A program made the position numbers and the translations under genes. Positions 40,775 through 53,299 of a DNA stretch of 64,000 nucleotides are shown here, in pieces. How positions within the stretch are numbered: the first letter of the stretch is position 1; the number at the start of each line of letters is the position of its first letter. Source of the stretch: Candidatus Xenobia bacterium (GTDB lineage: Bacteria > Vulcanimicrobiota > Xenobia > Xenobiales > QWHO01); NCBI GenBank assembly GCA_045863235.1, contig BTUM01000032.1, positions 1 through 64,000 of the forward strand. Reading direction: 5' to 3'. The notes under the pieces are model-generated. The model saw nothing but the letters and a program-made list of their open reading frames with translations. It ran no database searches and was not told the DNA's origin.

Positions 40775-41515
40775 TTACAGGACGTTGACCTCAAACTTGG
40801 CCAGGTCGAAATTCAGGAACGGGAACTCGGGGGGGAGGTCGGGTTGGACGATGAAATCATTGAGGGGATCGTCGGGGAAGAACTGGGGAATCGGATCCTG
40901 GATGCCCAGCGACTTCTCCAGGGTCATCGTTTGCAGGGCGTTGCCATTGATGTCCGGACCCTGGCCCGGAGTGTCGAGCACGCGACCGATGAAGGATCCC
41001 TGGAAGTTATCGGTAGTGAGCACGTGGGCCGTAAAGCGAGTGGCAGAGATGAACTGGTTGAGGAGATTGTTGGGGTCGTTGGGATCGAGCACGATCTCCA
41101 GGCCCGTGCCATCGGTCGTCAAATTCCAGGCATTGTTCATGCTTCCCGCCAGGGTGAAGGTGAAGCCCGGATTGGGGAGATTGGCCTGGCGGTGGTAGAA
41201 GTCGAGACTGCGACCGTCGAACCGGAGAAAATCGGTGAAGGTATCGATGTCGGTGATCTCGATCGGTTGCCCTGTGGCATTGAACAGGATAAGGTAGTAC
41301 CCGACTCCGGAAGTGTCGATCCGGCCATTCGGGTTCACCCGCAGGGTGAAACGCAGCAGCGCAGGTGTCGCGTCAGGCTGCTGGGTGGTCGGGTTGGAGG
41401 AGGAAGGTCCGCTGGCGCAACCGGTTGACAGGATTGGCACGAGCAGGCAGGAACCGAGTGCGAGGCCCAGGGCCGCGCGGGATGTCCATGAGCGAAAGTA
41501 AGAAAACCAGGTCAT
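40775..41515 (-). CDS. Hypothetical lipoprotein
   Basis: ILSTGC lipobox; start uncertain. Confidence 0.6.
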   Translation of the reverse strand: MTWFSYFRSWTSRAALGLALGSCLLVPILSTGCASGPSSSNPTTQQPDATPALLRFTLRVNPNGRIDTSGVGYYLILFNATGQPIEITDIDTFTDFLRFDGRSLDFYHRQANLPNPGFTFTLAGSMNNAWNLTTDGTGLEIVLDPNDPNNLLNQFISATRFTAHVLTTDNFQGSFIGRVLDTPGQGPDINGNALQTMTLEKSLGIQDPIPQFFPDDPLNDFIVQPDLPPEFPFLNFDLAKFEVNVL

Positions 41516-41541
41516 CAAAAGCCTCAGAAACCAGGAAACGA

Positions 41542-43023
41542 TTGGGATTGCCCTTCGGGGCCGCCTGCCTTCTTGCCTTTCTCTCGGCATTCCTGCTGTA
41601 TCTTGCCTTCCCGCATCCCCACATTTCAGGCTTCGTCTGGGTGGCCGCCCTCCCGTTCTATCTCGCCTGTCGCTTTCAGGGTCCGGTCCGGGGAGCTGTG
41701 CTCGGGCTCCTGTTTGGTTGCGCCTTCCAGTATTCGTTGCTATCCTGGGCCACCGTTTTTGGGACCGCCGCCCAGGTCGCCCTGGTGCTTTATAAGGCCG
41801 TCGCTCCCGCCCTCCTGGGCGCTCTTTTGGGCTCCTACCGTCCTCCCACTCCCCTTCATGGCGCCCTCTTTGGCGCGGCTGCCTGGGTGGGCATGGAGTA
41901 CTTCCAGATCCTGGGTCCTCTGGGCATGACCTGGGGCATGCTGAGCCATACTCAGTCTCGAATTCTGCCCTGGATTCAGATCGGTGAGCTGTTTGGTCCC
42001 TGGGGACTTTCCTTCGCCATCGCCTTCTGGAATGCGGCCCTGGCTGAATTGTTCTGGCGACGCAAGCGAGCCCTTACGACGGTGGGTGCTGCGGCTGGCC
42101 TTCTGGCAGTCATCTTCTCCTACGGAATCGTGCGCCTGCAGCATCCATGGGGAAACGGCCATTCACTGACATGGGGAGTGGTCCAGACCTCCATGCCCCA
42201 GGATCAGCGCTGGGACCCGAGCTTTCGCGAAGAGATCATGGGCCGGCTCGACCGGTTGACCCGAGAATCCGCCTCTCAGGGCGCGCGTCTAATTCTCTGG
42301 CCGGAGACCAGCGTGCCTTATCCTTTCTTTTTGGAGACCTGGCCCCTGCGCTCCCGCGTGGGCGGGCTGGCCCAGAGCCTGCAAAGCTTCATTCTGACCG
42401 GCTCCATCGAGCGCGCCTCCGAGCCCAACGCCACTCGCAACGTGGCCACCCTGGTCGCTCCTGACGGCGAGCTTCTGGCCACCGCCGAGAAAATCCGGCT
42501 GGTGCCATTCGGCGAGTATCTGCCGTTGCCCCGTTTCATGCGCGACTGGCCGATCTTCGACCGGGTCATGCGCTACGTTCCCGGCACGCAGCACGTCATT
42601 TTTCCCGACCCCACATCCTTTGGCGTTCTCATCTGCTACGAGTCCATGGTGCCTCACGAGCCGCGCAAGAAGGTCGAGCGTGGTGCCGGGGTGCTGGCTG
42701 TGATCACCAACGACGCCTGGTTTGGAAAGTCGTCGGCCGCCATGCACCACTTCGAGATGGCCATCATGCGGGCGGTGGAGATGCGCAGGCCGGTCGTCCA
42801 GTGCGGCAACAACGGTATCTCGGGCTTCATCCTTCCGACCGGCGAGGTGATGGTCGAGTCGGGTCTCGATGAAGTCGTTCAGTTGACCCGTGAGGTTCGG
42901 CCCGAGACCTACCGAACGATTTACAGCCGTACTGGCGATCTGCTGGCTTATCTGTGTCTGGCCATGATGCTCTGGCTCATCAGGTTGCAGTTGGGCGAGC
43001 GAACGCAATGCGTGAAGAGCTGA
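41542..43023 (+). CDS. lnt: Apolipoprotein N-acyltransferase
   Basis: Multi-TM N-terminus; triad WPET, K..LVPFGEY, ICYE; TNDAWF. Start uncertain (41488 possible). Confidence 0.93.
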   Translation: MGLPFGAACLLAFLSAFLLYLAFPHPHISGFVWVAALPFYLACRFQGPVRGAVLGLLFGCAFQYSLLSWATVFGTAAQVALVLYKAVAPALLGALLGSYRPPTPLHGALFGAAAWVGMEYFQILGPLGMTWGMLSHTQSRILPWIQIGELFGPWGLSFAIAFWNAALAELFWRRKRALTTVGAAAGLLAVIFSYGIVRLQHPWGNGHSLTWGVVQTSMPQDQRWDPSFREEIMGRLDRLTRESASQGARLILWPETSVPYPFFLETWPLRSRVGGLAQSLQSFILTGSIERASEPNATRNVATLVAPDGELLATAEKIRLVPFGEYLPLPRFMRDWPIFDRVMRYVPGTQHVIFPDPTSFGVLICYESMVPHEPRKKVERGAGVLAVITNDAWFGKSSAAMHHFEMAIMRAVEMRRPVVQCGNNGISGFILPTGEVMVESGLDEVVQLTREVRPETYRTIYSRTGDLLAYLCLAMMLWLIRLQLGERTQCVKS

Positions 43024-43844
43024 CCCGGCTTGAAAGAGTCTTCCTGGCGATGATCGCCCGGGCCCAATCTCTGACCCAGCTCGAGCAAACGAACCGACAC
43101 ATCTTTGGGCGACGTGGCCAGCTGACTCTTGCGCTGCGTTCGCTGCGCGATTGCCCGGAGAGGGAGCGACCGGCTCTGGGAAAGCTCGGCAACCGGATCA
43201 AGGAGAGCCTGCAACACGCCATCGGGCAGAGACGCGAGGAGTTGCGCCAGGTCAGCCAGGTCCAGCGCCTGGAGTTCGAGCAGCTTGATGTCACCCTGCC
43301 AGGCATTCGGCCCGTCAGTGGACGCCTTCATCCCCTGCGCGAGCTGGAAGCGGAAAGCGGTCACTGGCTTCGTCTGCAGGGCTTCCTGCCCGCGCGGGTT
43401 GGACCCCTGCCGGATCGGCTGGGGGAATTGAGTGGGCGGCGCTACGGCTCTCGGCTGGTCTGCAGCCCTGAATGGGGAGGCTGGGGGCATCAGGAAGGGA
43501 TGCCCACTCCTCCCGTCGACCCGGCCTGCGGACACCTGCTGGAGGCGATTGCCACGGGTGAGCAGTGGACTGTCGGTCAGCTCAAGGGCTGGCTGGAGAC
43601 CTGGGGCAGGCAGTTCCTGGGCTATGTTTCGCTTCGATGCGTTCCCGGCTCGGTTACGTGGGCCAGCCCTTCGCTGCACCTGCTGGGGCCTTTCCGGGGG
43701 GGCTGGCTGGCGGTTGCCAGCGCCGGCCTGCTCGAGCACGGGGCCTGCCTGGCAATCTCTCTCGAGCGGGCCGCGGCCGTTCGCTACAATCTCGACCCGG
43801 GTGTCTTTCAATCCCTCGACTGGCGTTTCGTGGCTCAATTCTGA
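43008..43844 (+). CDS. pheS: Degenerate phenylalanine--tRNA ligase alpha-like protein (catalytic motifs lost)
   Basis: N-terminal coiled coil GRRGQLT..ERPALG, DVTLPG, G.LHP and C-terminal RF.AQF kept; RTHTS, motif 2 and motif 3 missing. Confidence 0.8.
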   Translation: MREELTRLERVFLAMIARAQSLTQLEQTNRHIFGRRGQLTLALRSLRDCPERERPALGKLGNRIKESLQHAIGQRREELRQVSQVQRLEFEQLDVTLPGIRPVSGRLHPLRELEAESGHWLRLQGFLPARVGPLPDRLGELSGRRYGSRLVCSPEWGGWGHQEGMPTPPVDPACGHLLEAIATGEQWTVGQLKGWLETWGRQFLGYVSLRCVPGSVTWASPSLHLLGPFRGGWLAVASAGLLEHGACLAISLERAAAVRYNLDPGVFQSLDWRFVAQF

Positions 43845-45976
43845 TGCGAGTACCGTTTGTCTGGCTCAAGGAGTATGTCGAGATTTTCGAGCCCCTGACT
43901 CAGGTTGCCGAGGAAATCAGCTCGCTGGGCTACCCGGTGGCCGGGACCGGAACCGTGGGAGCACCCGTGCGCGGCGTTCTGGTGGGTCAGGTGAGCAGTA
44001 TCGCGCCTCACCCCAAAGCCGATTTGATGAAGGTTTGCCAGATCGATCTCGGAGACGAAGGAGAAGCCCAGATCGTGACCACGGCTGGGAACGTGCGCCT
44101 GGGGCAGAAAGTCGCTGCCGCCTTGCACGGAGCGGTTCTGGCCGGGGGAACTCGCATCAAGCGAGGGCGCTTGCGCGGGGTTCTCTCCGAGGGAATGCTG
44201 TGCTCGGCTGACGAGCTGGGTCTGTCGGCTCTCGACCTGCCCCACGAGCAGCGTCACGGACTCATCGAGATGCCCGAGCAGAGCGAGCCGGGAACTGATG
44301 TCATGGACCTGTTGGGCCTGGACCAACAGGTGATCCTGTTGACGCCCTGGCCGGAACGAAACCCCGGTGGGCTGATTGGACTCGCACGTGAGCTGGCGGT
44401 TCGGATGGAGCGAAGCCTCGAGAGCCCCTCTCTTGCTCCGGCCGAGACCAGCGCTACGGGCTGGTTCGAAGAGCCCGATCCGGCTGCCGTCTGCGAGCTC
44501 GGAGTCTGCCTGCTGCAGGGCGTCAAGCTCGAGCCTTCCCCGGCCTGGATGGCTCGTCGCTTGCGAGCAGCCGGGCTGCATACGGTCATGAACGTGCTCG
44601 ACATCGTGCGCTACGTGATGGTGGAGACCGGTCAGCCCTTGCACGTCTATGATCTGGACCGACTGCGACCTCCGCTGAGTATGCGCCCAAGCACGCCGGG
44701 CGAGTCCCTGCGGCTTGGAGAGACGGTGCGCGAGCTTCCTCCTGGCACCTGGGTGGTCTGCGACGGGAGAGGCCCCGTAGCTGTTGCCGGTGTGGCTGTG
44801 GGCAGCGATTTTCAAGTGCATCCCCGGACCCGACGCGTACTGGTCAAGGCGGCTCGCTATCGGCCAGGCCTGGTAGAGGAGAACGGTCGCCTCCTGGGGG
44901 TCGCTACGGAGTCGTCGCGGCGCTTTGTGGCTGGCCCCCGGGGCAGCCACCTGACCCTGGCTCTGCAGCGCGCGAGCTGGTTGCTTCAGAGGCTGGCTCG
45001 GGGGCGATTGCAGGCCGTACAAAGCTGGCGCTGTGACGATCAACCCGAGTTTGAGCTCGACCCGGCCTTTCTCGAACGCCATCTCGGGCCTCTTGACTCG
45101 GGCTGGCTCGACCAGGCTCTGGTGGCCGCTGGTATCGGCTATCATCGAGTGGGCAGCCAGTTGCGAGTGAGCGTCTCGGCTCACCGGGTCCTGGAGGACC
45201 TGGTGCGTCTTCGCGGGGTGGACCGTCTCGAAGCAGTGCCTGCGACCCTGCGGGCCTCCCCAACCGATGAGCTGGATGTGCGACGTCGACTGGCGATGAT
45301 GGGATTTTCGGAAGTGGTGTCCGGCTCTCTGCCTCAGCCCTGGTTGGGATTGCTCGAGCTGGCTGGTCGGCGCGGTCAGGACGAGCTAAGGCTGATGGAG
45401 CAGGTCGAGAGTGAGCTTTGTTTGCTGGTTTCGGGACACGATTCAGCCTATCTTCACTTGAAAGGTCTTCTTGAAATGCTTGCCGAACTCGCCCAGGCCG
45501 AGCTGTCTTTCGAGCCTGCCGAGTTGCCCTGGCTGCACCCGGGTAGCTCGGCGAAGATTAGCCTGGGTAATGCTCCTCTGGGCTGGTTGGGGGAGCCGCA
45601 TCACGGGCACGAGGACCGGGTTCAATCGACCCTCGCGGTAGCACTCATCGACAAGGAGCGACTGGCTGCTCGAGCCCGCCCTCGGGGGCTCTTCAATCCG
45701 GATGAAGTCCGTTGGGTCGAGCGAGATCTTGCGGTGCTGGTGCCCGAGCAAGTCTGGGCCGGGAAGGTAGTCGACCAGGCCCGTCAGGCAGGGGGGGCCA
45801 TGCTGGTTTCGATCCGGTGCTTCGACGTCTATCGAGGGAGCCAGATTCCCGAGGGATGGAAGAGTCTGGGGTTGAGGATCAGGTTGCAGTGCGATCGGGA
45901 GGCCGAGATCAAGTCCATTCTGGGCCGGATCCTGGGGCAACTGGAACAGAATCTTGGTGCTCGCTTGCGGGCTTGA
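43844..45976 (+). CDS. pheT: Degenerate phenylalanine--tRNA ligase beta-like protein
   Basis: WLKEYV, HP.AD, RGVLSEGMLCS, GQPLH.YD, WLHPG, RDLAV..FDVY.G..KSL; 710 aa; TGATG coupling to the alpha-like gene. Confidence 0.85.
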   Translation: MRVPFVWLKEYVEIFEPLTQVAEEISSLGYPVAGTGTVGAPVRGVLVGQVSSIAPHPKADLMKVCQIDLGDEGEAQIVTTAGNVRLGQKVAAALHGAVLAGGTRIKRGRLRGVLSEGMLCSADELGLSALDLPHEQRHGLIEMPEQSEPGTDVMDLLGLDQQVILLTPWPERNPGGLIGLARELAVRMERSLESPSLAPAETSATGWFEEPDPAAVCELGVCLLQGVKLEPSPAWMARRLRAAGLHTVMNVLDIVRYVMVETGQPLHVYDLDRLRPPLSMRPSTPGESLRLGETVRELPPGTWVVCDGRGPVAVAGVAVGSDFQVHPRTRRVLVKAARYRPGLVEENGRLLGVATESSRRFVAGPRGSHLTLALQRASWLLQRLARGRLQAVQSWRCDDQPEFELDPAFLERHLGPLDSGWLDQALVAAGIGYHRVGSQLRVSVSAHRVLEDLVRLRGVDRLEAVPATLRASPTDELDVRRRLAMMGFSEVVSGSLPQPWLGLLELAGRRGQDELRLMEQVESELCLLVSGHDSAYLHLKGLLEMLAELAQAELSFEPAELPWLHPGSSAKISLGNAPLGWLGEPHHGHEDRVQSTLAVALIDKERLAARARPRGLFNPDEVRWVERDLAVLVPEQVWAGKVVDQARQAGGAMLVSIRCFDVYRGSQIPEGWKSLGLRIRLQCDREAEIKSILGRILGQLEQNLGARLRA

Positions 45977-45991
45977 AGGAAGGAGGAACGT

Positions 45992-46531
45992 ATGACCGGC
46001 CTCGATATGCTGCTGCTGATCTTGATCGTCGCGTTTATCTATCTCGGTTACCGCCGAGGCGTGATCGGCGAGGCATTCGATATCATTACCGGCATCGTGA
46101 CGGGCATCGTCGGGGTCATCGTCTACGCTCCCCTGGGAAAGATGATCGATCAGTGGACCGAATGGGGAGTCGGCCCATCTCAATGGCTGGCTTTCTTTCT
46201 GGTCGGGTGCCCGGTGGCCGTGTGCCTGTTGATTCTCGGCATGCACCTCGATCGAATCGCCCGCGATGACAAGAAGATTCCCGACGCCATCATGGCCTAT
46301 GGTGGGCTCTTCTTGAGCATCTTCAAGTCTCTGTTCGTGCTCTGGCTGGCCCTGATGCTGCTGAAAGCGAGTCCTCTTTACAGCAAAACGACCCGTGAAG
46401 AGTTTACCAATGCTCCCGTCGTCAATTTCATTGAAGATACTGGCGGAACAGCCGGGAAGGCCATCTTCGGCGTCATGGCACCGGGCAATGTCCAGAAGCA
46501 GTTGGGGCCCTTCCTGCAATCGGGATTCTAG
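45992..46531 (+). CDS. cvpA: CvpA family membrane protein
   Basis: LD.L.L....IYLGYRRG...E; four TM segments; AAGGAGG RBS. Confidence 0.8.
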   Translation: MTGLDMLLLILIVAFIYLGYRRGVIGEAFDIITGIVTGIVGVIVYAPLGKMIDQWTEWGVGPSQWLAFFLVGCPVAVCLLILGMHLDRIARDDKKIPDAIMAYGGLFLSIFKSLFVLWLALMLLKASPLYSKTTREEFTNAPVVNFIEDTGGTAGKAIFGVMAPGNVQKQLGPFLQSGF

Positions 46532-46535
46532 GAGG

Positions 46536-46991
46536 ATGGCCTGCTGGTTGCTCAAGAGTGAGCCCGAGGTATTCTCCATCGACGACCTTCAGCGCAAGAA
46601 GGTCGAGGGCTGGGACGGTGTGCGCAACTACCAGGCGCGCAACTATCTCAAGAGCATGCGCAAGGGCGATCAAGCCTTCTTCTATCATAGCCGTGAGAAG
46701 CCCCCGGGCATCGTGGGGATCTGCAAAGTAGTGCGCACTGCTTACCCTGACGATACGGCCAGCAATCCCAGGAGCCCCTATTATGATCCTCGCCACACTG
46801 CCGAAAACCCTGTCTGGTTTCGGGTGGACGTCGAGTTCGTGGAGAAGTTCTCGCGCTTGCTCTCCCTCGATGAGCTCAAGGCTACCCGTGGCCTGGAGCA
46901 GATGGTCGTGACGCGCAAGGGCAGTCGCCTTTCGGTGCAGCCAGTGACACCGAAGGAGTGGAAGACTGTGCTCAAGCTGCTCGAGTCGTGA
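46536..46991 (+). CDS. EVE domain protein
   Basis: WLLKSEP, WDGVRNYQARN, FFYHS, RLSVQPV. Confidence 0.93.
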   Translation: MACWLLKSEPEVFSIDDLQRKKVEGWDGVRNYQARNYLKSMRKGDQAFFYHSREKPPGIVGICKVVRTAYPDDTASNPRSPYYDPRHTAENPVWFRVDVEFVEKFSRLLSLDELKATRGLEQMVVTRKGSRLSVQPVTPKEWKTVLKLLES

Positions 46992-47677
46992 TCGAGCTGG
47001 TTCTGGTGCGCCACGCGCAGCCGATGTGGGAACCCGGTGGGCGGGCGGTGGACAACCCTGAGTTGACCGAGTTGGGACTGCAGCAGGCCAACCGGTTGGC
47101 AGAGTGGCTTTCGGGCGAGCACTTTGACGCCTTCTATTGCAGTCCCTTATTGCGTTGCCGCCAGACGGCCGCCCCTCTGGAGGCCCTCTGGCGGCGCTCG
47201 TGCACCATTTTGAGCTGGTTGGAGGAGATCAGGCTGCCCACCCTGGAGGGCCAACCATCCGCCCAGGTGCACGAGTTTCTGGCTCAAGTTCGAGCCCGCG
47301 ACCTGGAAGATTGGTGGGAGGGGGCTCCAGGCGGGGAGTCCTTTCGCCACTTTCACGAGCGAGTTGTGGGTGGTCTGGAGCCCCTGCTGACTCGCGACCA
47401 TCGCGCGGAGCTGCACTCCGAGGCTTCCTACCGACTGTGGCAGGTACCTTCGGAAAGCGAGCGCATTCTGGTGGTGGCCCACGGGGGCACGATCGCTGTC
47501 ATGCTCAGCTTCTTGCTCGGAATCGAGCCGGTTCCCTGGGAGTGGGAGCGTTTCAAAGTCGGCTGGTGTGGCCTGTCGGTCGTACGCTCGGTCGAACTGG
47601 CTACGGGAGCTCTGTGGTCTCTGACCAGTTTCAATGCCCGCGGCCACCTGGCCGGGCTACCCGACCCATGGGGTTAA
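46988..47677 (+). CDS. Histidine phosphatase family protein
   Basis: LVRHA, SPLLRC.QTA, PGGES, VAHGG. Confidence 0.85.
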   Translation: MIELVLVRHAQPMWEPGGRAVDNPELTELGLQQANRLAEWLSGEHFDAFYCSPLLRCRQTAAPLEALWRRSCTILSWLEEIRLPTLEGQPSAQVHEFLAQVRARDLEDWWEGAPGGESFRHFHERVVGGLEPLLTRDHRAELHSEASYRLWQVPSESERILVVAHGGTIAVMLSFLLGIEPVPWEWERFKVGWCGLSVVRSVELATGALWSLTSFNARGHLAGLPDPWG

Positions 47678-51475: not shown

Positions 51476-53299
51476 TCACCCTCGGCGAGGTACTCGCACG
51501 CCGCCGATGACCACCGCGTCCTCCTGCTGGGCGACGCTGCCCTGACTGGTCGGCCCACCGAAGGAGGCCTTCAGCGCCTTCTCCACGTCGTCGTGAAGGA
51601 CCAGATTCTGCAGGAACTGAGTGACCCGCTGATCGGTCTGGCGGGGGTCGCTCTTGCCCTCGCGCAAATCCTGCTGAAAGTAGGTGAAGACCTCGGTGGC
51701 GCGGTCCTGGTGGCGACCTACGGCCATGCCTTCCAGCAACTTGCAAAAGCGTTCGCCGGTAGTCGCCAGACTCTCCGAGCCGGCCCGCTCGGCCAGGATG
51801 GTGCGGTAGCAAAAGCTGGTCTGATCGGTGCTCCCGGCGGGCAGGCGGCGAGCGATGTCGGTGAAAAGCCGGGTGCGGTCTTCCTGGCTCTCCGCGCCCA
51901 CGGTGATGCGGACCAGGTCCATCCCTTCACTGGCGGCGGCGATCGAGCCGCTGGCCGACAGCAAGCTGAAGAACAGGTCTTCGAGTTGCTCCTGGCGCTG
52001 GGGATTGTTAGCCGCTCTGGCGGCGATCACTTCCTGGGTCTGGCTGAGCACCCGATTGGCCTGCTCGTAGCCCTGGCGGGCGTAAGTCGTGCTGACCAGG
52101 GCTGTCTTGCGAGCCAGCTCGAAGGGGGTGGCGCACTCGGCGAACAGCTTCTTGGTCAGCCCACCAACGCGCTCGCTGACCCGATAGTTGTCATCGTCCC
52201 CCTTCTTGCTGCCCCGAAGCAGTTCTGCGTAAACGGCTGCAGCCACACGCAGCGGGAACTTTTCGCCCCCCTGGATCACGATCTGAGGAAAATAGACGTT
52301 GTCGCGCTCCCATCCCGCCTCGGCATAAGCCCCCGACAGAACCTCGCGATAGACGGCATCGTATTCAGCCAGGCGTCGAGAGAGCCCGGGCAGGTTGGCA
52401 AGCTCGTCGCGACTGACGCTCAGCAGGACCCCCTTTCCTTCGCGCGCCCATACGTTCTTGGCTTCCTGCAAGTAGACCGAGCGTGCATCGATCTTGTTGC
52501 GGTCGCTGTAGAACTCGAAGCCCTTCTCTTGCGCTTGCTTCAAATCTTCCGCCAGTGCCGGATCCTTGAGCCCGCGGTCCGTCCCGGAGCCGCAAAAGTA
52601 GTCGAGTGCGGACAGGGTTTCGGCGTTGGCCGCCACTCTGTCGTTGCCGGGGGCGGCGAAGTAGATGTCCTGCCCGGCAGCGAGTCCGCGCAGGTGCTCC
52701 AGGGTGTCGCTGGGGCGCCTCTCGTCCTCGTCATAGTAGTAGGAGGAGCTGGAGGTCGGCTTGTAATCCTTGGCTTGGAGACTGCGCAGGGTCTCGAGCC
52801 GGGTCTTGTCCTCACCGGTGAGGACGTCGTGGCCCAGGACAGCGTCGGCAAACTGCAGATCGCGCAGGGCGGTCACCTTACGTCGGTCGGTGCCGGGCAT
52901 GGTGATCTGCAGACGGTCCAGTTTGTCAGCTTTCTGTTTCAGGACGTGCTCGCAGGCTTTGTCGGCCGTCAGCTCCTGGTGTCTGGGACGGAGCCCGAAG
53001 GGGAGCACGAAGCGTCTTCGATACTCGAACCTGGCTCCGCCCTGCTCAAGCCTGCGGAAGGCCTGGAGCAGGTCCTGGCGGGCAGTCTCGCTGATAACAG
53101 AGCCAATTGGCCCACCCACGGTCGAGCCGGCCACCAACACTCCCGCCTGCGCGAGCTCGGGCCAGGGATTGGCCAGGGGAGTGGACTGCAGTTGAACCTT
53201 ATCGCCGGGGTCGGCCGGTGTCGTCTCGGCCGCGGCGGCCGGTCGCGAAGCTACGAATGTCGGTCGGGAGGTCAGGCTCTGGAGCGAGGTGATCATCAC
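51476..53299 (-). CDS. Hypothetical helical protein with S/T/P/A-rich leader
   Basis: 607-aa ORF; no family recognised; leader contains DKVQLQS. Confidence 0.75.
   Translation of the reverse strand: MMITSLQSLTSRPTFVASRPAAAAETTPADPGDKVQLQSTPLANPWPELAQAGVLVAGSTVGGPIGSVISETARQDLLQAFRRLEQGGARFEYRRRFVLPFGLRPRHQELTADKACEHVLKQKADKLDRLQITMPGTDRRKVTALRDLQFADAVLGHDVLTGEDKTRLETLRSLQAKDYKPTSSSSYYYDEDERRPSDTLEHLRGLAAGQDIYFAAPGNDRVAANAETLSALDYFCGSGTDRGLKDPALAEDLKQAQEKGFEFYSDRNKIDARSVYLQEAKNVWAREGKGVLLSVSRDELANLPGLSRRLAEYDAVYREVLSGAYAEAGWERDNVYFPQIVIQGGEKFPLRVAAAVYAELLRGSKKGDDDNYRVSERVGGLTKKLFAECATPFELARKTALVSTTYARQGYEQANRVLSQTQEVIAARAANNPQRQEQLEDLFFSLLSASGSIAAASEGMDLVRITVGAESQEDRTRLFTDIARRLPAGSTDQTSFCYRTILAERAGSESLATTGERFCKLLEGMAVGRHQDRATEVFTYFQQDLREGKSDPRQTDQRVTQFLQNLVLHDDVEKALKASFGGPTSQGSVAQQEDAVVIGGVRVPRRG

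Follow-up and report, generated by a model that had tools for sequence, protein, structure and literature searches.

The closest described relatives of the degenerate pheS-pheT gene pair analyzed here, which resides in a 64,000-nucleotide stretch of the genome of a Candidatus Xenobia bacterium (positions 1 to 64,000 of the forward strand of contig BTUM01000032.1, assembly GCA_045863235.1; hereafter, the window), are the canonical (alpha-beta)2 phenylalanyl-tRNA synthetases (PheRS), such as those of E. coli (3PCO) and T. thermophilus (1EIY/2IY5). Several departures from the canonical synthetases are on record. In spirochaetes, the bacterial form has been replaced by an archaeal-type PheRS, both subunits of which serve charging in a bacterium (PMC3191353); SLIMP, a dead paralogue of seryl-tRNA synthetase (SerRS) with a collapsed catalytic site, keeps the tRNA-binding coiled coil and has non-catalytic roles (PMC10817482); HisZ and other non-aminoacylating synthetase paralogues possess a class II core that does not charge and is kept by selection (PMC5388404, PMC7373986); and duplicated synthetases can cooperate, as in the case of the threonyl-tRNA synthetases (ThrRS) of Anabaena (PMC4787780). 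The B2 OB fold or the B3/4 domain of PheRS is also found in YtpR (NF045760), TapR (NF045867) and free B3/4 proteins, e.g., CtdA (PDB 9F7E).

The pair in the window differs from each of these. The lineage acquired an archaeal-type PheRS; the native pheST stayed at its ancestral site, lost both active-site signatures and is held by purifying selection. With canonical PheRS, the pair shares gene order and coupling, domain order, fold, the coiled coil, B2, B8 with its G34 contacts, and the predicted alpha-beta interface, but motif 2, HTS, FPF and the motif-3 glycines are absent and the editing residues are replaced. Whereas spirochaetes replaced the bacterial form, here the displaced native pair was kept and remodeled. 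SLIMP, itself a duplicate, has as its partner an active subunit from which the coiled coil is missing, whereas here both subunits are dead and are predicted to pair with each other; HisZ consists of one chain and regulates a known enzyme, whereas here a complete two-subunit synthetase with an anticodon domain is involved; and YtpR, TapR and the free B3/4 proteins are single domains, in contrast to the whole beta architecture accompanied by alpha (the beta chain scores below the cut-offs of both families, at 93.9 bits against 100 for NF045760 and 56.5 against 120 for NF045867). We found no description of a dead two-subunit bacterial PheRS, or of the PheRS of this lineage, in the largely open-access literature, supplementary tables aside. 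The displaced native PheRS kept as a dead pair is a real new variation among pseudo-synthetases, archaeal-type imports and dead paralogues as such being already known.

An earlier note on this DNA, made from the letters alone, had described two open, TGATG-coupled reading frames from which catalytic and editing residues are gone and in which the anticodon-binding domain stays. Translation and the junction coordinates confirm the coupling: neither alpha (43008-43844) nor beta (43844-45976) contains internal stops, and the alpha TGA (43842-43844) overlaps the beta ATG (43844-43846), the same junction being present in all four other loci checked. Both chains fall below the NCBIfam equivalog cut-offs (Table 1). 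In alpha, Pfam reports a PF02912 match (E 1e-14) and only a sub-threshold catalytic core (17.9 bits, cut-off 19.8). Aligned with canonical PheRS of the same class, alpha is missing the NFEALN..HP.R..DSF segment, HTS, the motif-2 loop, FPF, the four-Cys insert and the motif-3 glycines. The motif-2 Arg, HTS, FPF and motif-3 G.G..R patterns occur in none of the 11 degenerate alphas and in 27, 21, 22 and 22, respectively, of the 27 canonical-like rows, so that the claimed absence of catalytic motifs stands for these four signatures, with the refinement that the motif-3 Arg (R254) is kept. Motif 1 and all six canonically conserved coiled-coil positions are retained as well. Residues 176-278 are 80-84% identical within the genus-level group and about 29% identical to canonical sequences, and an ESM Atlas search with residues 100-278 returned PheRS-core clusters only.

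In beta, Pfam matches B2, B3/4, part of the catalytic-like module and B8, and does not detect B5; both B5 and the catalytic-like module are shortened, with neither the RQD of B5 nor the NPLS..R segment present. The WPER, DIVRY and LVK readings of the earlier note are exact, except that WPER is to be compared with FANR, the form found in the nearest canonical relatives, rather than with TPNR. B1 is 72-80% identical within the degenerate clade and about 35% identical to canonical PheT. The residues that we take to form the interface Mg site, namely, a conserved Asn in B1, two Asp in B5 and, in alpha, the Glu that follows FPF, are lost or variable. To judge from the alignments, chance loss of the missing alpha and beta segments is excluded, the deletions recurring in every degenerate member, even at about 50% identity.

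The editing residues are R244, N254, H265, G318, E334 and T354 in E. coli numbering (PMC8599791), and we located them in beta by counting along an alignment with the E. coli sequence. Four of them, R244, N254, G318 and E334, are invariant in 70/70 canonical PheT and are replaced by H, R, V and K in 7/7 degenerate betas, whereas H265 (here H267) and T354 (here T/S355) are retained. Arguably, the B3/B4 pocket might have been re-purposed for a new ligand or chemistry, e.g., as an anion or nucleotide site or an acidic-amino-acid deacylase, because the N to R and E to K changes reverse its charge. Six of the seven beta positions that are constant but different from canonical PheT fall in B3/4, four of them being named editing residues, H267 and T/S355 persist, and segment 228-275 shows an omega (the ratio of non-synonymous to synonymous substitution rates, dN/dS, in the codon model described below) of 0.047. 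We nevertheless consider such re-purposing quite unlikely: 42% of the B3/4 columns are invariant among the seven degenerate betas anyway, four fixed out of five changed editing sites gives a binomial p of about 0.1 by hand, G318 to V is a pocket-filling change (Trp there lowers editing 7.5-fold; PMC8599791), and omega of B3/4 overall is 0.13. The fixation of the replaced residues is suggestive only.

The preservation of B2 and the anticodon-binding domain, as claimed originally, is borne out for B2 by the invariance of most of its canonically conserved residues (Table 1). In B8 of T. thermophilus, G34 is contacted by D729, Y731, S742 and R780 (PMC9976931). The residues D661, Y663, S674 and R709 are retained in all seven degenerate betas. 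They are presumably the counterparts of the four T. thermophilus residues, which we placed on FDVY, KS and the terminal LR. As a separate observation, the window genome encodes a stand-alone B3/4-domain protein (203 aa; PF03483, 33.3 bits; L070:2083-2694, minus strand, G000:C125), a possible trans-editing factor.

A functional pheST elsewhere in the genome had also been postulated. Queried with the dead pair, a tblastn search of the window genome (97.6% complete) matched only the pair itself; a profile search revealed another PheRS core (G000:C37, E 1e-86), consisting of an alpha of 509 aa and a beta of 609 aa with all motifs intact. This pair scores above the archaeal-type cut-offs (NF003210, 533 against 350; TIGR00471, 491 against 283) and contains no match to PF02912, PF01588 or PF03147, in line with the lack of B8 in archaeal and eukaryotic PheRS (PMC3275996). 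Because its motifs are intact and no other candidate was found, we infer that the archaeal-type pair is the enzyme charging tRNA-Phe; the postulated second pair thus exists, although it is an import, and the dead copy is the native one, not the duplicate. The codon usage of the archaeal-type pair is housekeeping-like, with a codon adaptation index (CAI) of 0.70 and 0.69 for the two genes compared with 0.48 and 0.46 for the dead pair, which in this respect resembles its neighbours (the archaeal-type values are near the 0.72 of rpoB and leuS, which is circular for these two, both belonging to the reference gene set). The nearest relatives of the import are other bacterial proteins (62-71% identity), so its direct donor probably was a bacterium. 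The imported PheT of the genus and its sister family carries a four-Cys, zinc-ribbon-like insert near the N terminus (weak PF02150 match; L034:5923-7752, minus strand, G000:C37, and sister-family loci L042-L044), which is present in 5/5 rows from these two groups and in none of the three rows from other families.

Comparison of the genus of the window (f1; five genomes, including the window genome, G000) with its sister family (f2) and a third family of the same order (f3) reveals the history of the site. The order lnt-alpha-beta-cvpA is found in four of the five genus genomes and is interrupted in the fifth by a contig end inside beta. Among the six third-family loci, three have the canonical lnt-pheS-pheT-cvpA arrangement, one has lnt-pheS-pheT, and two are without either neighbour; among five lnt loci of the sister family, lnt is followed directly by cvpA, without pheST, in two, and neither cvpA nor pheST is present in the stretch in three. 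A quick tree built from 39 beta rows places the seven degenerate sequences in one clade (support 100) with a stem of 1.43 changes per column; this clade is the sister to canonical PheT of the third family (Shimodaira-Hasegawa-like approximate likelihood ratio test value of 90, in a quick tree and with this long stem). Gene order and phylogeny identify the dead pair as the native bacterial pheST, which still occupies its ancestral lnt-pheST-cvpA site, and not as a duplicate. The canonical pheT of one third-family genome (L051, G034:C63) is frameshifted near an N gap, probably an assembly artefact. One sister-family genome of 16 (G025) matched the beta profile with a canonical-looking C-terminal PheT piece (L062:5706-6769, at the end of G025:C42); we rejected it as a native copy of that family, given that it sits at a contig end, beyond an N gap, and is not accompanied by alpha, and it probably reflects misassembly or contamination.

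In the phylum sample of 251 genomes, archaeal-type pheT is present in 33, namely, 5/5 of the genus, 16/16 of the sister family, 0/19 of the third family and 12 from three other families. The bacterial alpha domain was detected in 5/5, 0/16 and 19/19 genomes of the first three groups and in 0/12 of the other archaeal-type holders, which also lack B8; the native copy was thus kept by only 5 of the 33 holders, some of these genomes being incomplete. The 12 genomes (among G051-G074, families f13, f14 and f19) encode an archaeal-type PheRS with 31-38% identity to that of the window genome in the six compared and, on this divergence, it appears to be a separate import into the same phylum. The RpoB tree (22 rows) joins the genus and the sister family (100/97), and in a careful tree of the import alpha, all nine rows from these two groups are on one side (84/84); in a quick import tree with more rows, the genus groups with other proteins (support 90), and the import beta tree is without close outside relatives. 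A single import before the split of the two groups is the simplest story and is compatible with these data, the import's own trees neither supporting nor rejecting it.

Outside these genomes, we identified six more alpha clusters (73-93% identity, all 277-278 aa) and six degenerate beta clusters (down to 55% identity, P0017), and a search of 1.84 billion representatives produced only two proteins at E < 1e-30, one of them the partial alpha P0132 (about 48%). P0132 and P0017, both Eremiobacterota records, share the deletions. The archaeal-type alpha P0286, which has an adjacent accession number, groups with the import of the genus (support 100), which suggests that this more distant organism, too, has both native and archaeal-type PheRS. 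The distribution of the shared deletions indicates that the degeneration is old, a single event and, in the collections searched, restricted to this lineage.

Selection was assessed with Nei-Gojobori pairwise dN/dS from the window genome and with our own one-ratio (M0) codon model for five sequences on a fixed tree, in which L055 was substituted for the cut beta of G001. Between the window genome and three close genomes, dN/dS is 0.05-0.09 for alpha and 0.09-0.13 for beta, rising to 0.18 and 0.25 for a distant genome, where dS is about 1.1. The codon model yields an omega of 0.049 for alpha and 0.104 for beta (twice the log-likelihood difference against omega = 1, 571 and 1004), compared with 0.039-0.076 for five neighbours and 0.022 and 0.019 for the import, values that are only roughly comparable across genes because of differences in G+C content at third codon positions. 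The frames are open in 5/5 genus genomes (in G001, beta is interrupted by the contig end). By part, omega in alpha is 0.072 for the coiled coil, 0.030 for residues 88-128 (motif 1), 0.066 for 129-175 and 0.032 for 176-278; in beta, it is 0.049 for B1, 0.066 for B2, 0.13 for B3/4, 0.166 for B5, 0.092 for B6/7 and 0.124 for B8, and the upper bound is at most 0.20 in every domain of the pair. Plain decay of the pair is refuted: every part is constrained, the dead core most of all. The argument that selective loss without frameshifts speaks against simple decay has therefore held, orthologues being open with dN/dS far below 1, and the implication that selection is focused on the tRNA-binding modules has not, the lowest values being those of the dead alpha core, motif 1 and B1.

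Slow decay of a redundant pair that has stayed open by chance, through operon coupling or through selection against misfolding could be proposed on the grounds that omega is 2.5-5 times that of the working enzyme, codon adaptation of the pair is low, and the genes were lost in sister lineages. This version is highly improbable: omega of the pair is on par with functional neighbours (0.04-0.08), close pairs of alpha show 55-104 synonymous against 12-24 non-synonymous differences, the length of 277-278 aa is preserved in each of the 10 full-length alphas in the alignment (the remaining one, of 11, comes from a partial record), the same deletions recur at about 50% identity, and the sister family tolerates a clean deletion of pheST from the operon.

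AlphaFold2 models of the two chains have a mean predicted local distance difference test (pLDDT) of 85 for alpha and 89 for beta, and the top Foldseek matches are bacterial PheRS chains. The predicted alpha-beta complex scores 0.71 against 0.00 for the best of three controls, with runs agreeing in 74% or more of contacts and a partner pLDDT of 81 or higher; the mark for this score is reached by 116/157 solved pairs and 2/215 mismatched pairs. As PheRS is a textbook pair, this pass may be a memory of solved structures. The predicted interface sets alpha residues 88-103 and 188-223 against B1, B5 and the catalytic-like module of beta, with residues 176-278 of alpha contributing most of the contact, and this location of the interface in the alpha core would explain the conservation of the dead core. 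Alternatively, the pair could be a tRNA-independent scaffold with a protein- or DNA-binding job performed by a new surface of the dead core or B1, the anticodon residues being structural. The lowest omega values (alpha 176-278 and 88-128, and B1) and the similarity of B1 and alpha 176-278 within the group combined with their distance from canonical sequences, that is, re-fixed new sequence, speak for such a scaffold, and there is a precedent in KLMT-1, a duplicate of a PheRS subunit that acts outside tRNA biology (PMC13192637). The conserved stretches, however, largely coincide with the predicted alpha-beta interface, and the four G34 contacts and six conserved coiled-coil residues are retained down to about 50% identity, which makes this alternative unlikely, if still worth serious attention.

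That the dead pair performs some non-catalytic function seems very probable. On balance, we lean toward a non-catalytic tRNA-Phe-binding complex that preserves a second job of the bacterial enzyme. The native pheST went through a burst of change in which both active sites were lost and has since been held by purifying selection; under this scenario, the two chains would assemble as a PheRS-like alpha/beta complex, probably alpha2beta2, with the dead core conserved as the assembly surface. In the binding of tRNA-Phe by the complex, B8 would contact anticodon G34, and the alpha coiled coil, perhaps together with B2, would contribute, with no charging and no editing. The second job could be to hold tRNA-Phe or present it, or to signal its state to a partner, and would be beyond the reach of the import because the latter has no B2, B8 or coiled coil. 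Several observations weigh against this interpretation. The absence of native alpha from 28/33 archaeal-type holders implies that the second job is dispensable in close kin; B8 and B5 are among the least constrained beta domains; beta evolves about 2.7 times faster than canonical PheT (a hand calculation from trees); and the alignments behind the structural models consist mostly of canonical sequences, which biases the models. Furthermore, the seven degenerate betas agree with one another in only 36% of the B8 columns, so that the case for tRNA binding comes down to a few residues and the coiled coil.

A narrower proposal, which is speculative and in our view rather unlikely, is that the native PheRS was re-tooled as a tRNA-Phe sensor that tells charged from uncharged tRNA, a bacterial GCN2-like device made from a two-subunit synthetase. 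In such a sensor, B8 would read the anticodon, the charge-reversed pocket (R256, K335, H246, H267) might hold the 3' end or an anionic ligand, and the signal would pass through the newly fixed core/B1 surface. The dead pair might also be a helper of the import, delivering the bacterial tRNA-Phe, which has U20, to the archaeal-type PheRS in the manner of SLIMP or Arc1p, or forming hybrid oligomers. The single tRNA-Phe gene of the window genome has U20 and the archaeal identity set lists G20 (PMC9976931), both the dead pair and the import are present in 5/5 genus genomes, and SLIMP (PMC10817482) and the Anabaena ThrRS heterodimers (PMC4787780) are precedents. We nevertheless regard a helper as very unlikely, given that U20 is also found in 8/8 sister-family tRNA-Phe genes read and that 16/16 sister-family genomes use the archaeal type without native alpha. 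A SLIMP-type loss for the dead pair to complement is not apparent either, the genus and sister-family imports having the same domains (two and three rows compared, respectively) and the sister family being without the dead pair. Altogether, U20 is present in 29/29 tRNA-Phe genes covering the position among the 30 loci read, sister family included, so the U20-to-G20 change that might explain the loss of the native pair in that family was sought in these genes and not found.

After xenologous displacement, the native gene normally disappears, and 28 of the 33 holders of archaeal-type PheRS examined here conform to this. By separating the charging by PheRS from its other role(s), this lineage would represent a natural separation-of-function mutant, which makes the non-catalytic roles of bacterial PheRS directly testable, and a single gene site is seen in three states, intact, remodelled and deleted, within one order. 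On the practical side, the related beta P0017 carries the ordinary annotation 'phenylalanine--tRNA ligase subunit beta', and phylogenies based on single-copy markers could be misled by genes of this kind.

Table 1. Coordinates of the degenerate PheRS genes, their domains and adjacent genes in the window
Feature	Position	Strand	Remarks
Degenerate native bacterial-type pheS (alpha, 278 aa)	43008..43844	+	TIGR00468 37.9 bits, cut-off 237.45
Alpha N-terminal tRNA-binding coiled coil, residues 1-87	43008..43268	+	6/6 canonically conserved residues retained; omega 0.072
Alpha class II core, shortened and remodelled	43269..43841	+	omega 0.032 for residues 176-278
Degenerate native bacterial-type pheT (beta, 710 aa)	43844..45976	+	TIGR00472 376.8 bits, cut-off 402.65
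Beta B2 OB fold, residues 41-151	43964..44296	+	18/21 canonically conserved residues invariant; omega 0.066
Beta B3/B4, former editing domain, residues 191-395	44414..45028	+	H246, R256, V319, K335 replace E. coli R244, N254, G318, E334
Beta B8 anticodon-binding domain, residues 616-710	45689..45976	+	D661, Y663, S674, R709
lnt (apolipoprotein N-acyltransferase), upstream neighbour	41365..43023	+	start uncertain, analysed from ATG 41482; overlaps alpha start
cvpA-family gene (PF02674), downstream neighbour	45992..46531	+	second marker of the ancestral pheST site

An Rfam scan of the window and the import locus yielded no family at the gathering score, hence no T-box or leader, and counts of promoters and terminators were near or modestly above those for shuffled sequence, with nothing usable. 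Contigs from four RNA libraries overlap parts of both genes, yet also most of 16 kb (20-30 of 30 bins), so that transcription is indistinguishable from DNA carry-over.

Downstream of cvpA, an EVE-domain gene (46536-46991, plus strand) and a histidine-phosphatase gene (46958-47677, plus strand) follow in 4/4 genus loci that reach this far, and are not at this place in the sister-family and third-family loci examined; EVE domains are readers of modified nucleic acids. Elsewhere in the window, a 607-aa protein without a Pfam match is encoded at 51476-53299 (minus strand). A 271-aa lipoprotein-like protein, likewise without a Pfam match (40775-41590, minus strand), is divergent from lnt and is retained beside it in loci of the genus, the sister family and the third family, with 44-57% identity.

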